Notes: a model not told the origin generated them from the sequence alone. Shown: positions 1-6,309, counted from the stretch's first letter. The stretch: DNA of 6,403 nucleotides from a virus (IMGVR_UViG_2636416140_000005), one strand, 5' to 3'. Numbers and translations are program-made.

Positions 1-888
1 ACCGGGGTTGTGGCGCCAGCCGCAGGTTATGCCCGCGCAGCAGAGCAGGCCAAAAATGACATTGATGCTGCGCTGACCGGCACTCTGAAAACGGCTAACC
101 ATCTGTCTGAAATCGCAGCAGCAGGCGAAAAGGCACAACAGAAGTCCCGGGATAATCTGGGGCTGAAAAGTGCGGCCACGATGGAAGCACAGAGCGACAT
201 TTACGACCGGACAAAAGGCCGTCTGGCGATACCCGGCGCATTCGGCTTTGGGCGTGCTTTTCTGCCTGAAGATGTTATCCGTTTTGACACTAAGAGTGAT
301 TTCCTGGCCTGGGTAAGGAATGCGCTGCCAGGTGAATATTCCGTTGCTGGCCCCTACGACATCATCATACCCGACACACGGTTTGAAGGGGTGCTCAGCA
401 TCCGGTGGACTGATGCACGCCCTGAGACAACAGAACCGAGGTACAGAGCCAAATCCCTTACTTTTTACGGCATTAACGGCCCCATTTATCACACCCGCTA
501 CTGCTACTGGCCCATATCCAGACTGACTGGCTGGGTGAAAATAAATATAACCACAGAAGATATTATTTACAGAATCGTGGCGAGCTCTGTCCGCAACAGA
601 TGGGGAGACCCTGACATTGGCGGGCTGATTATTGCTGCGTACCAGGGAGAAGCTGACGGTGATAAAGTCATCAGACTTGTCAGGGGGCAGTCATACAGAG
701 GCTCACGACTGGGACCGGTGGGGATTTCAGTGCCCAGTACTCCCACCGGAACGTATATAGCATCCCCACAATTTTTCATTACGGGATGTTCAGAGCATTC
801 ATTACCGGGGTCATATTGCGCCCTGTCCGGGGTGCCGGATGCACATGTCTCTGGCGCAATGCCCGGGCTTTTTATTCGCACATCGTGA
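1..888 (+). CDS. Phage tail fiber protein, C-terminal portion (5' end lies outside the window)
   Basis: Frame 1 is open from base 1 to TGA at 886-888; the track's start at 10 is just the first GTG. N-terminal part is Ala/Gln/Lys-rich (AAGYARAAEQAKNDIDAALTG...), C-terminal part Gly/Tyr/Trp-rich as in receptor-binding domains. Followed immediately by a small overlapping gene in the usual tail fiber/chaperone arrangement. Family assignment is from memory and context, not a search. Confidence 0.6.
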   Translation, partial: TGVVAPAAGYARAAEQAKNDIDAALTGTLKTANHLSEIAAAGEKAQQKSRDNLGLKSAATMEAQSDIYDRTKGRLAIPGAFGFGRAFLPEDVIRFDTKSDFLAWVRNALPGEYSVAGPYDIIIPDTRFEGVLSIRWTDARPETTEPRYRAKSLTFYGINGPIYHTRYCYWPISRLTGWVKINITTEDIIYRIVASSVRNRWGDPDIGGLIIAAYQGEADGDKVIRLVRGQSYRGSRLGPVGISVPSTPTGTYIASPQFFITGCSEHSLPGSYCALSGVPDAHVSGAMPGLFIRTS

Positions 889-1462
889 GGAATGCACCGT
901 GGAAATTAAAAAAATCATTAATCCCCGTTATACCGAAAGTGGCGCAGTAGACTGTGACGTTTTTTTTGACGACAGGGACCAGGCAGTCCCCTACACAGCC
1001 ACCGCTGATGATGTCGCACCGACGGGTCAGCGAATCTGGCAGGAACTGCAAAGTGGCAAATGGGGTGAGATAGCCCCATTCACTGTGACACCAGAAATGC
1101 TGGAAGCGGCCAGAGAGGCCAGACGTCAGGAAATTGAAGCATGGCGCGCAGAACAGGAGGCGAAGCCGTTCACGTTTGAATGGAACGGTCGTATCTGGAA
1201 TGCTGGTCCCGACTCACTGGGCCGCCTGTCCCCGGTAGTCATGCTGGCAAAATCTGTCACAGCACAAACACATATGGCGTGGAGCGATGCCGATAATCAG
1301 CAGGTGAAACTGTCGATGCCGGAACTGGAAGAACTGGCGGCAGCAATGGTGCAGGCGCAGGTCGATCGCAACGATGAGATTTATCGCCGTCAGCGGGAGC
1401 TGAAGGAAGAGCTGAATAGTCTGAAGGATTTGAATTCGGTTAGGAATTTTATCGTGGAATAA
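839..1462 (+). CDS. Putative tail fiber assembly / tail-fiber-associated protein (family uncertain)
   Basis: ORF ending at TAA 1460-1462, directly after the tail fiber gene. Charged, coiled-coil-like stretches (EAAREARRQEIEAWRAEQEA; EIYRRQRELKEELNSLKDL). Start is ambiguous: ATG 839 overlaps the tail fiber gene by 50 nt (GGGG 6 nt upstream); the in-frame GTG at 899 has GAGG at 887-890, 8 nt upstream, and begins 11 nt after the tail fiber stop (187 aa). Confidence 0.5.
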   Translation: MHMSLAQCPGFLFAHREECTVEIKKIINPRYTESGAVDCDVFFDDRDQAVPYTATADDVAPTGQRIWQELQSGKWGEIAPFTVTPEMLEAAREARRQEIEAWRAEQEAKPFTFEWNGRIWNAGPDSLGRLSPVVMLAKSVTAQTHMAWSDADNQQVKLSMPELEELAAAMVQAQVDRNDEIYRRQRELKEELNSLKDLNSVRNFIVE

Positions 1463-1470
1463 CAGAAGCT

Positions 1471-1499
1471 GCGGCACGTCGTATGCAGGAACGTGCCGC
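1471..1499. other. Perfect 9-bp inverted repeat (GCGGCACGT / ACGTGCCGC) with 11-nt loop between convergent tfa-like gene and sitD; possible bidirectional terminator or RNA-stability hairpin
   Basis: Stem 1471-1479 pairs with 1491-1499, GC-rich. No clean U-tract follows on either strand, so it is not a canonical intrinsic terminator. Confidence 0.35.
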
Positions 1500-1662
1500 G
1501 GTTGGCTGGTAAACTTTCGATAGTGCGAGTATTGAATGATTTCTAGGCGTTATCGATTTTACGTATTTTTTGCATGATAGAATTCGTACCTCCTCCCAAC
1601 GACCTTCCATGGCTTTCCGGACTTCTGTAGGCTGGCGGACGATGCTGTCCTCGGATGTTGTG

Positions 1663-2520
1663 CTAATTGGGTGATAACAGATCCTGTGTATGGGCGTTTC
1701 CCTTTGTGCGTGCGTTGATGCTGGTAACGGTAAACGTCATGATGAACACGACCGCGAATAAGACGACAATCGTCGGAGCTGGTGCGCTGTCGATAAAAAA
1801 GGACAGCCAGACACCAGTCATTGACACTATTACCGATATGCCAGTCGCCAGTAGGAGCGCAATATGAAAGCGTTGTGTCAGGAGTACTGCAATGGCGCCA
1901 GGCGTAATGAGCAGAGAAATAGAGAGAATGATACCTACTGCTTTCAGCGTCGCCACAATGGTCAGGGAAACCATGCACAGCAGCCCATAATGCAGCCATC
2001 TCGTATGCAAACCGCTTACCTGCGCCTGTTGATAATCAAAGCTGAACAGCAAAAAATCCCGCCATTTTACGCTAATAACAAGTGTAACCAGCCCGGCAAT
2101 AATCACCGTCTGGATTATATCGCCGATGGTTATCCCGAGCATGTCGCCGAAAAGAATATGGTCAAGATGTACGTCTGGTTTAATTGCAATATACAAGATC
2201 AGACCTGCGGCAAACATGCCAGAAAAAACAATCCCCATAACTGTATCTTGCTTGATTCGGCTGTTGTCTTTCAGGTATCCCGTCGCCACCGCGCAGAATA
2301 CTCCGGCGACGAATGCCCCTGTAGCCAGAGGTAACCCCAGAATCCAGGTAAGCACGATGCCAGGAAAAACCGCATGACTCATCGCGTCACCCATCAGTGC
2401 CCAACCTTTCAGGACCAGAAAGACCGACAGCAGCGCACAGGGTATGGAAACTACCAGTGAAATCAGCAGTGCGTGACTCATAAAGGTGAACTGCAGTGGC
2501 TCCAGTAATAATGCCATCAT
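1663..2520 (-). CDS. sitD: Mn2+/Fe2+ ABC transporter permease SitD
   Basis: 285 aa, strongly hydrophobic multi-pass protein. Last gene of a four-gene - strand operon; its ATG (2518-2520) overlaps the sitC stop (2517-2519) by 2 nt. Paralogous in character to the adjacent permease. Confidence 0.88.
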   Translation of the reverse strand: MMALLLEPLQFTFMSHALLISLVVSIPCALLSVFLVLKGWALMGDAMSHAVFPGIVLTWILGLPLATGAFVAGVFCAVATGYLKDNSRIKQDTVMGIVFSGMFAAGLILYIAIKPDVHLDHILFGDMLGITIGDIIQTVIIAGLVTLVISVKWRDFLLFSFDYQQAQVSGLHTRWLHYGLLCMVSLTIVATLKAVGIILSISLLITPGAIAVLLTQRFHIALLLATGISVIVSMTGVWLSFFIDSAPAPTIVVLFAVVFIMTFTVTSINARTKGNAHTQDLLSPN

Positions 2521-5193: not shown

Positions 5194-5207
5194 TAATTAT
5201 CATTAAC
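5189..5207 (-). promoter_or_regulatory. Fur box (- strand reads GTTAATGATAATTATTTTC; 16/19 to GATAATGATAATCATTATC)
   Basis: 19-mer 77-95 nt upstream of the sitA ATG, counted by eye against the Fur consensus. Overlaps the proposed -35 element. Confidence 0.65.
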
Positions 5208-5321
5208 AGCTTTGAGGCCTAAAACAGGGATTAGGTTGTTTCCTGCTGGCGACATGATATTGAGGAAAAAAGTAGAGCAGCTATTAGGCTTTGAAATGAC
5301 TTTATGAGGAAAATTGTTGAT

Positions 5322-5535
5322 GGCAAAAAAGGGGCAAAAAAAGAGTGGGTTATCGTAGCTTATTGTTGTCGCTGATAATGTTTAACATATTGAAAAATAA
5401 ATAAAATACTTATGAGTCAGATAGTTGTGATTTTTGCCCTTACTTGTTCAGGTTGTATTGTTCTTTCTTTGTAATTTGTTGATTTTCTTGCATTATTTCA
5501 GTTCTCTGGTACTAAATGGGGCAAATTGGGGGCAA
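5322..5535. repeat. GGCAAA-rich repeat set in an AT-rich block: tandem pair 5322-5342, inverted copy 5431-5439, tandem pair 5518-5535
   Basis: TGGCAAAAAAGGGGCAAAAAAA at 5321-5342 and TGGGGCAAATTGGGGGCAAAC at 5517-5536 are imperfect direct repeats; TTTTTGCCC at 5431-5439 is the reverse complement. The second pair lies 10-27 bp from the integrase stop codon. Confidence 0.4.
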
Positions 5536-5544
5536 ACTTTGCAA

Positions 5545-6309
5545 CTACGATAACCGCGCATCCAACATGGCTATCTGTTCGTCGTTCATGTCATCAATCC
5601 ACATACCGTAAATTTCATACACCATTTGCGCAGTTTCATGCCCCATCTGGCTGGCTATAAATGCCGGGTTCGCTCCTGCCGTCAACAGCCAGCAGGCAAA
5701 AGTATGTCGCGTATGGTACGGATTATGGCGGCGAATACCAGCACGTTTTACTGCTGCATTCCATCTTGCACCCAAACTGCTTACCGAGTAATAAGGTTTC
5801 TGTTTTTCGTTACACACCCTGGGCATGAAAACAAAATGCAGTTTTTGCTTTTCAGTTCTGCCGTACTCCCGATGATAAAAAGTGATTTCGCTTTTGCGAT
5901 GATGCCCGGTCAGTTTGTATTGCTCCTTCAGTGCTTCAAGAGCCGGCTGCAGTAATGTTACCGTCCGGATCCCGGCATTTGTTTTTGGGGGACCGAACAT
6001 ATCAAGTATCGTCAGGTTTCTTCTGACATTCACAATTCCCTTCTCGAAATCCACATCCTCCCACGCCAGAGCTGCCAGTTCCCCGTGACGAAGCCCGGAG
6101 TAAACGGCAAATTTCCACAAGTTTTGGCTCTGTCCTTTTTCACTTTCCATTAATGCATTGAATTCTGTTTTAGATAACGGGTCAGGCTTTATTCTGTTTC
6201 GCTGTAATTTTTTTACTCCTTCAAATGGTTTGGTTGATATAAATCCCGACTGATACGCAAAACGTAACAACGAACAGAGCAGGGCGATATAGTTATCAAC
6301 TGTGCGCAC
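5545..6309 (-). CDS. int: Tyrosine-type site-specific recombinase (phage integrase), catalytic domain; probably N-terminally truncated or frameshifted
   Basis: 254 aa from GTG 6307-6309 to TAG 5545-5547. Catalytic signature present: Arg in SGLRHGEL, HxxR in HTRHTF, Tyr in QMVYEIY (compare P2 Int ...LRHSFA...TMVYAHF). The same frame upstream has no other start and hits an in-frame TAA at 6400-6402, and only about 73 residues precede the box I Arg. Confidence 0.8.
   Translation of the reverse strand: MRTVDNYIALLCSLLRFAYQSGFISTKPFEGVKKLQRNRIKPDPLSKTEFNALMESEKGQSQNLWKFAVYSGLRHGELAALAWEDVDFEKGIVNVRRNLTILDMFGPPKTNAGIRTVTLLQPALEALKEQYKLTGHHRKSEITFYHREYGRTEKQKLHFVFMPRVCNEKQKPYYSVSSLGARWNAAVKRAGIRRHNPYHTRHTFACWLLTAGANPAFIASQMGHETAQMVYEIYGMWIDDMNDEQIAMLDARLS

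Follow-up and report, generated by a model that had tools for sequence, protein, structure and literature searches.

Why should the integrase gene of a temperate phage lie beside the tail-fibre and cargo genes, when integration of a lambda-type phage sets these two ends apart? The question is raised by a stretch of 6,403 nucleotides (IMGVR_UViG_2636416140_000005), the whole of which is called here the window. It is the entire contig ANAN01000125.1 of assembly GCA_000815945.1, in reverse orientation, and its SitA and DUF4376 proteins are named Shigella flexneri in the source records. The window carries, in this order, a tail-fibre gene, a DUF4376 gene, the sitDCBA genes of a metal importer, an AT-rich spacer of 432 bp and a truncated integrase gene of the Rac type. 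A preliminary description of this DNA had taken the order from 839 to 6309 for that of an unintegrated phage, i.e. the order found around a phage attachment site (attP) that has not recombined with the chromosome. The gene order holds; the end coordinate does not, as the integrase frame reaches 6384 and 6309 is merely its first GTG.

The answer starts in the spacer. Judged by its sequence, window 5304-5544 is an attP that is intact and has not recombined, complete with P arm, core and P' arm. It belongs to a temperate phage of the Rac type whose cognate bacterial site (attB) lies in the 5' end of ttcA. The features concerned are the following.

5113-5544, no strand: AT-rich spacer of 432 bp, GC content about 0.33
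5304-5443, no strand: P arm of attP; GGGCAAA stands at 5332-5338 (+) and, inverted, at 5433-5439
5444-5469, no strand: att core of 26 bp, TTGTTCAGGTTGTATTGTTCTTTCTT, with which the annotated 26-bp att of phage Rac-SA53 coincides
5470-5544, no strand: P' arm of attP, with two tandem copies of GGGGCAAA at 5518-5525 and 5529-5536
5443-5493, minus strand: phage-borne 5' pseudo-fragment of ttcA, translation MQENQQITKKEQYNLNK*

The assignment is carried by comparison with integrated relatives. In enteroinvasive Escherichia coli (EIEC) CFSAN029787 a 48-kb prophage, 99.3-99.8% identical to the window, is Campbell-integrated between ttcA and uspF and carries an insertion sequence (IS), IS2, internally. 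Its order is ttcA-intR-xisR, followed further on by head genes, the contractile-tail baseplate and tail fibre-DUF4376-sitDCBA-uspF-ompN. The sit/attR end of this prophage agrees with window 6-5486 at 99.7% identity and its attL/int end with window 5444-6384 at 99.8%, the two matches overlapping at att. The P arm is identical to the sit-side arm of attR in the EIEC strain and in E. coli N25 and is unlike attL, while the P' arm is identical to the int-side arm of attL in both strains and is unlike attR and attB. The 26-bp core is identical in the window, in attL and attR of both strains and in attB of the empty site. Neither arm matches the body of ttcA or host sequence on the uspF side, so that the host arm of a Campbell prophage end is found on neither flank of the core. 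Hence the attP-type order proposed in the preliminary description is confirmed: the arms correspond to attR and attL of one Campbell-integrated prophage and the core is common to both. The annotated att of Rac-SA53 sits exactly where the homology of Rac-SA53 to the window starts.

It had also been suggested that the att site might not be where the repeats place it; this is not borne out, since the core is located exactly between the GGGCAAA repeats. Four of the five copies of GGGCAAA in the window are found within 205 bp around the core, direct and inverted in the P arm and as two tandem copies in the P' arm. The longer motif GGGGCAAA occurs three times in the window against 0.41 expected, a number that only one of 200 shuffles reached. 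The GGGCAAA repeats are plausible candidates for arm-type Int sites. These useful repeats came from motif search; the generic repeat finder gave for the window only short pairs at chance level, and scans of the window for tandem repeats and for tRNA genes gave none.

Upon integration the phage-borne ttcA fragment would substitute for the start of the host gene. In Rac, a duplication of this kind (ttcA/ttcC') is present at the prophage ends, and excision of Rac alters four N-terminal residues of TtcA (Liu et al. 2015, PMC4632033). Three TtcA N-termini were observed, namely the phage type MQENQQIT, the ancestral MSQNQEIS and the hybrid MSQNQQIT. Both the ancestral and the hybrid forms are found at empty sites, which indicates that the point of exchange is variable within the imperfect homology to the right of the core.

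The gene that would act on this site is broken. The end of the window contains two features.

5545-6384, minus strand: truncated Rac-type tyrosine integrase, residues 133-411 of 411 (PF00589, E=7.8e-24)
6385-6403, no strand: terminal 19 nt of IS1, abutting integrase codon 133; the contig stops within the repeat

The integrase fragment is identical at 277 of its 279 residues to the IntR adjoining ttcA in CFSAN029787. It keeps the catalytic domain and has lost the N-terminal arm-binding part (132 residues), and is not a full-length IntR; a stop codon is present at 6400-6402, inside the IS1 end. The window ends in GGTAATGACTCCAACTTAC, and longer sister contigs run on into IS1 sequence, their extension matching the ends of elements annotated 'IS1 family transposase' in thousands of plasmids. 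All draft contigs with this Int fragment stop about 100 nt past it, so the contig break is the IS1 repeat itself. Exact-protein look-ups with SitA, SitD and the Int fragment of the window retrieved only short drafts ending at IS1. In the window lineage IS1 is positioned at nt 397 of int with its right-end terminal repeat (IRR) against the C-terminal part. In complete S. flexneri genomes it is found elsewhere in int and in the opposite orientation, with int nt 173-594 missing (7248-8013 of L022). Since positions and orientations differ between lineages, either int was hit at least twice or an IS1-mediated rearrangement took place. In the window, the phage integrase is inactivated by IS1.

What lies beyond IS1 was read from complete genomes (4.4-4.7 Mb), reached through a SitB identical to that of the window and assigned to S. 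flexneri by the source naming of their proteins. Host flanks were assigned by DNA similarity to annotated E. coli and phage genes by comparison with the EIEC phage. The complete genomes are 99.6% identical to window 6-6186, and the same arrangement is common to at least 10 of them. As the sit-attP-int junction is seen in these genomes and in dozens of independent draft contigs, it is not an accident of assembly. In the complete chromosomes the junction lies inside a tract of phage DNA, about 35 kb long and riddled with IS, that consists of two sibling remnants, a sit copy and an ipaH3 copy.

Read in the orientation of the window, the left flank is tyrR-tpx-ycjG-mpaA-ycjY, followed by two IS of the IS3 family, one of them an IS2 placed within an O-like gene. 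The O-like (DUF1376), dnaC-like, DUF977 and nin genes and Q come next, then an IS, and after it a tail-fibre fragment, an assembly gene, the tail fibre, the DUF4376 gene, sitDCBA and P-core-P'. To the right of attP there are int, interrupted by IS1 with codons 1-57 on its far side, xis, an IS, an AAA ATPase gene, gam, a further IS and recE'. These are continued by a racC-like gene, ydaE, kilR, IS2, rha and an IS, and at the far right by the 3' end of a tail-fibre gene, a DUF4376 gene, ipaH3, IS1 and pphA, beyond which yebW presumably lies as it does in EIEC. Compared with the EIEC phage, identity is 99.6-99.7% for the xis, int, gam and AAA ATPase segments and 96.5% for recE'. Head, tail and lysis genes are mostly gone from the island, and a second exact att core was not found within the about 35 kb examined.

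What follows int is therefore not host DNA but the early DNA of a phage, arranged in vegetative order. Host genes directly past int, together with an att duplication at the distal prophage end, had been named in the preliminary description as what would speak against its view, and the complete S. flexneri genomes do not show them. Its further suggestion, that int and att might be a relic of rearrangement or belong to a second element, is correct, the early DNA running on into an ipaH3 sibling remnant that ends at pphA. Thus int lies away from any prophage boundary, and the junction joins the sit remnant to the ipaH3 sibling remnant. As in a tandem lysogen, the cargo end of the sit copy meets the int end of the int...ipaH3 copy across attP; the bounds of the island are ycjY/IS and ipaH3-pphA, not the cognate attL (at ttcA) and attR (at uspF) of a tandem lysogen.

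The sibling phage can be seen intact in another strain. In EIEC RMDEC465 it is Campbell-integrated between yebY and pphA, with a different integrase, of 358 amino acids (aa), at the yebY side and ipaH3 in the cargo slot, adjoining pphA. The ttcA-uspF and yebY-pphA phages of EIEC run collinear for about 43 kb, at 93-99.4% identity, and differ only in the cargo and in the xis-int-att module. The pair is a clean example of module exchange, in which the int module and the cargo were swapped, and sit and ipaH (ipaH3) are alternative cargoes for one slot of one phage backbone. The DUF4376 gene is the one that precedes sit in the CFSAN029787 prophage and ipaH in the siblings; prophages in which an ipaH effector gene follows it instead of sit were observed at the pphA site and, in another case, near purL. 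The S. flexneri pphA-ipaH3 junction is the RMDEC465 junction at 98-99% identity, to which an IS1 was added later, apparently with a 9-bp overlap at its target site. When homologues of the yebY-type Int were searched for, no S. flexneri-specific entry came up.

We propose that the chromosome captured a sit phage in circular form, through a recombination that was not attP x attB, and that IS then degraded it, a reading to which we give a probability of about 60%. In the model, the circular genome would be either that of an infecting phage or the product of excisive attL x attR recombination at ttcA. It would become fixed through homologous recombination in the early region that it shares with a resident ipaH3 sibling prophage beside pphA. 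An IS-mediated rearrangement would then join the O-like gene to ycjY, and IS insertions and IS-mediated deletions would afterwards remove most of the phage genes and strike int. An equivalent route, in which an inversion between the two prophages comes first and an Int-mediated attL x attR inversion second, would give the identical product.

The long collinearity of the sibling phages offers ample substrate for homologous capture. Capture is favoured because: (i) the right-hand copy does not end at uspF but at pphA, with the junction native to the yebY-type sibling; (ii) a simple deletion joining ycjY to the O-like gene would take out pgrR through fnr to ttcA, and fnr is a gene that S. flexneri is known to keep, and (iii) ttcA is reported to be ancestral and unoccupied in S. 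flexneri. The report concerns strains 301, 2457T, 8401 and 2002017, in which the ancestral N-terminus of TtcA' indicates a prophage-free ttcA (Liu et al. 2015, PMC4632033). Empty ttcA sites with the ancestral MSQNQEIS N-terminus were also found in genomes reached via TtcA representatives, all of which had an empty site and no IS beside it. The S. flexneri sit island is described, in the passage of a review that cites Fisher et al. 2009 (PMC7545054), as IS-rich and placed at varied chromosomal sites, and as unstable through homologous, not site-specific, recombination.

Several points weigh against capture beside pphA. No more than about 19 kb separate the ycjY flank from ttcA, and the orientation of the sit copy is that of a ttcA-integrated prophage. 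Both would be coincidence if capture occurred at pphA, and they hint at an earlier integration at ttcA in this lineage, where the sit phage may once have resided. The unoccupied attB of S. flexneri rests on one paper (Liu et al. 2015, PMC4632033). An exact look-up of the AAA ATPase protein in 10 genomes found no second copy beside a yebY-type int. At least three recombination events are required, in any of several possible orders, and the genomes that supply the context beyond IS1 differ from the window lineage in the position and orientation of that element.

Among the other explanations, Int-mediated tandem lysogeny at ttcA survives best, and we regard it as unlikely. Sequential integration of two Rac-type phages at one attB, or unequal sister exchange there, would give the array attL, sit phage, attP, second phage, attR, which later IS deletions and exchange with the pphA prophage would have reshaped. 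Such contiguous junctions do occur in E. coli (30 of 5,426 complete genomes), and in strain H22 and avian pathogenic E. coli (APEC) O1 a complete lambdoid prophage terminates with the P arm and core seen here, after which come P', an int fragment and uspF. The proximity of ycjY to ttcA and the orientation of the S. flexneri left flank are those expected from such an array. The route is opposed by the same three observations that favour capture: the loss of pgrR through fnr to ttcA that the ycjY-O-like joining would entail by deletion, the ancestral ttcA of the four strains, and a right-hand copy that terminates not at uspF but at pphA, in a junction native to a phage whose integrase is different.

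Capture of the circular sit phage through an IS element instead of through sibling homology is quite unlikely. The phage would have entered by recombination between a phage IS and a chromosomal IS, by IS-mediated replicon fusion or by excision and reinsertion, and the link to ipaH3 would be a later, separate rearrangement. Copies of IS1, IS2 and IS3-family elements stud the remnant at each module boundary, the intact EIEC relative already has an IS2 inside the phage, and the ycjY/IS/O-like junction is IS-mediated, all of which agree with this route. However, the order attP-int-xis-AAA ATPase-gam-recE'-kilR is unbroken except for simple IS insertions, it continues into DNA of the sibling phage (rha, tail fibre, DUF4376, ipaH3), and no IS-bounded junction marking a point of capture was found.

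A bolder version, in which the sit/ipaH3 double island was assembled partly by Int-mediated attL x attR inversion of the chromosome and in which the inverted attP and ttcA attB could still recombine, seems to us decidedly unlikely. If it were true, the island attP and the unoccupied ttcA attB would be inverted with respect to each other on either side of the terminus region. A superinfecting Rac-type phage that brings in IntR, alone or together with XisR, could then invert or break several hundred kb once more, and phage integrase would be a driver of large-scale rearrangement of the Shigella chromosome and of the relocation of cargo between integration sites.

Very little credence can be given to the idea that the contig stems from a phage genome that was free and circular or was replicating, or that an assembly error united the two prophage ends. 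The window is indeed a short stand-alone contig of 6,403 bp with repeats at both ends. The proposal is refuted by the presence of the same junction within at least 10 complete chromosomes and in numerous drafts of independent origin, and an int broken by IS1 is incompatible with a viable phage. Finally, an ordinary prophage boundary, with int at attL beside host genes and sit as chromosomal flank, has in its favour nothing but the general expectation that int genes mark prophage ends and is refuted, with next to no probability left, by a core flanked by phage arms on both sides and by xis, the AAA ATPase gene, gam and recE past int, sit being phage cargo in many phages.

Upstream of the att site the window contains the end of the structural genes and the cargo.

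1-888, plus strand: tail-fibre gene, C-terminal 292-295 codons; the gene starts upstream of the contig and relatives have 422 aa
839-1462, plus strand: DUF4376 protein of 207 aa (PF14301, E=1.2e-16), in the position of a tail-fibre-assembly gene
1643-5303, minus strand: sit cargo cassette (moron), a block common to temperate phages with differing integration modules
1663-2520, minus strand: sitD, ABC permease (PF00950)
2517-3374, minus strand: sitC, ABC permease (PF00950)
3371-4198, minus strand: sitB, ABC ATPase (PF00005)
4198-5112, minus strand: sitA, periplasmic metal-binding protein of the ZnuA type (PF01297), SitA [Shigella flexneri] in source records
5145-5207, no strand: putative sit operator region upstream of sitA, with an MntR-box-like palindrome and a Fur-box-like site

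The tail-fibre part matches, at 99.7% identity, the gene that is annotated in EIEC CFSAN029787 as 'prophage tail fiber N-terminal domain-containing protein', and the DUF4376 open reading frame (ORF) is the final structural gene ahead of the cargo slot. All four sit ORFs are intact and 97-99.7% identical to annotated sitABCD, having the genes of a SitABCD manganese/iron ABC importer. The SitB is identical to that of the complete S. flexneri genomes; in exact-protein look-ups SitA and SitB are widely shared and the SitD of the window is a private variant, present in no other contig of the collection.

Phages 21, Perceval, ev207 and 1H12, together with others, match window 1643-5303 at 98% identity, some of them reaching only 5249 or 5297. 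An imperfect direct repeat of 16 nt (TGAGGAAAA..G.AGA), at 5261-5276 and 5305-5320, 44 bp apart, brackets position 5303. As the homology to the sit cassettes of other phages stops at this position, the repeat possibly marks a boundary of module exchange. Upstream of sitA, the MntR-box-like palindrome at 5145-5166 (AAACATAGCAACGGCTATGTTT) is an exact match to AAACATAGCnnnnGCTATGTTT, and the Fur-box-like site at 5189-5207 agrees with the Fur consensus at 16 of 19 positions; neither match arose in shuffles. The two putative sites fit a manganese- and iron-responsive control that would travel along with the cassette. The palindrome was also flagged as a hairpin by the terminator scan.

The island varies among complete genomes. 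In CP055132.1 (6064-8717 of L029) a local tandem duplication of int'-attP-sitA-sitB' gives two attP junctions about 2.2 kb apart. In some S. flexneri genomes the AAA ATPase gene and xis of the remnant are separated by an inserted reverse-transcriptase gene of a group II intron (L023 4790-6298; L058 12581-14089; L061 12565-14088). In many, an ORF6N gene and an integrase of 534 aa (DUF6538 and Phage_integrase) stand after Q and ahead of the tail-fibre fragment, as in CP034931.1 (2978-5776 of L048). This integrase, which has a relative at about 0.9 Mb in some E. coli, belongs to another element; simpler genomes such as CP182555.1 are without the insert.

The sit module in this island is not self-mobile, i.e. 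it can neither excise nor be packaged alone, because its int is cut by IS1 and lacks the N-terminal 132 residues and the structural genes have mostly been deleted by IS. Moreover, its own att site was not used for the present insertion and the integrase is dead, so that loss or movement depends on RecA or IS recombination, in agreement with what experiments on this island are reported to have shown. In S. flexneri sit is a fixed chromosomal operon, which RecA/IS recombination can lose but which its own Int cannot excise, while in other phages, e.g. phage 21 and Perceval, the sit cassette (1643-5303) remains mobile. This explains why the sit virulence island of S. flexneri looks like a phage and does not behave as one. 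One backbone with interchangeable integration modules accounts for sit islands at several chromosomal sites. The sit-attP-int' junction can be used as a lineage marker, and predictors of prophage boundaries should be applied with caution, as an int gene may sit midway in a composite prophage remnant. The arrangement is real, but it is an ordinary kind of prophage wreckage.

The closest known systems are the Rac and Rac-like prophages at ttcA (K-12 Rac, Rac-SA53). They have in common with the window the integrase family, the 26-bp att core and the replacement 5' end of ttcA, and the int DNA of Rac-SA53 is 97.5% identical to that of the window. The window differs from them in that the site is unrecombined (P-core-P') and away from ttcA, int is truncated by IS1 and the cargo is sit; furthermore, the relatives of its phage have contractile-tail baseplate genes. 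As in attP of lambda, a core is placed between arms with repeated short motifs, the Int sites being here only predicted, and adjoins int. As in tandem polylysogens of lambda, the cargo/tail-fibre end meets the int end across attP. The outer ends of the island are not cognate attL and attR as in those polylysogens, but an attR-type pphA junction belonging to a different integrase and an IS junction at ycjY.

In phages 21 (OL657228), Perceval (of E. coli LF82, PMC9928086), ev207 and 1H12 the sit cassette occupies the same slot, from the tail-fibre genes to att-int, and in phage 21 it is located between the side tail fibre and attP/int. Those phages are viable whereas the carrier in the window is a wreck, and the integration module of phage 21 (icd) is different. 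The tandem remnant at ttcA of B2-type E. coli (the cdt prophage of APEC O1, and H22) likewise has a P-core-P' junction followed by an int fragment. In contrast to S. flexneri, that array is still between ttcA and uspF and its downstream part is tiny: between the newer prophage, which in APEC O1 has cdtABC in the cargo slot, and uspF there is an old remnant of 231 bp of int, a DUF1627 fragment and a frameshifted sitD-like permease gene (sitD').

The island is the 'PAI sit' of S. flexneri (Fisher et al. 2009, via PMC7545054), with phage-related genes and many IS. Neither an intact attP nor a vegetative gene order nor the ipaH3 sibling remnant next to it is mentioned in the summary given in PMC7545054, and two S. 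flexneri genome papers are silent on both sit and Rac. What was found here falls into a known class, that of composite decayed prophages with an internal att site, and concerns an island already known in outline, to which it adds three traits that appear to be new to the literature consulted: an intact Rac-type attP, more than 25 kb in vegetative order and, next to it, an ipaH3 sibling.

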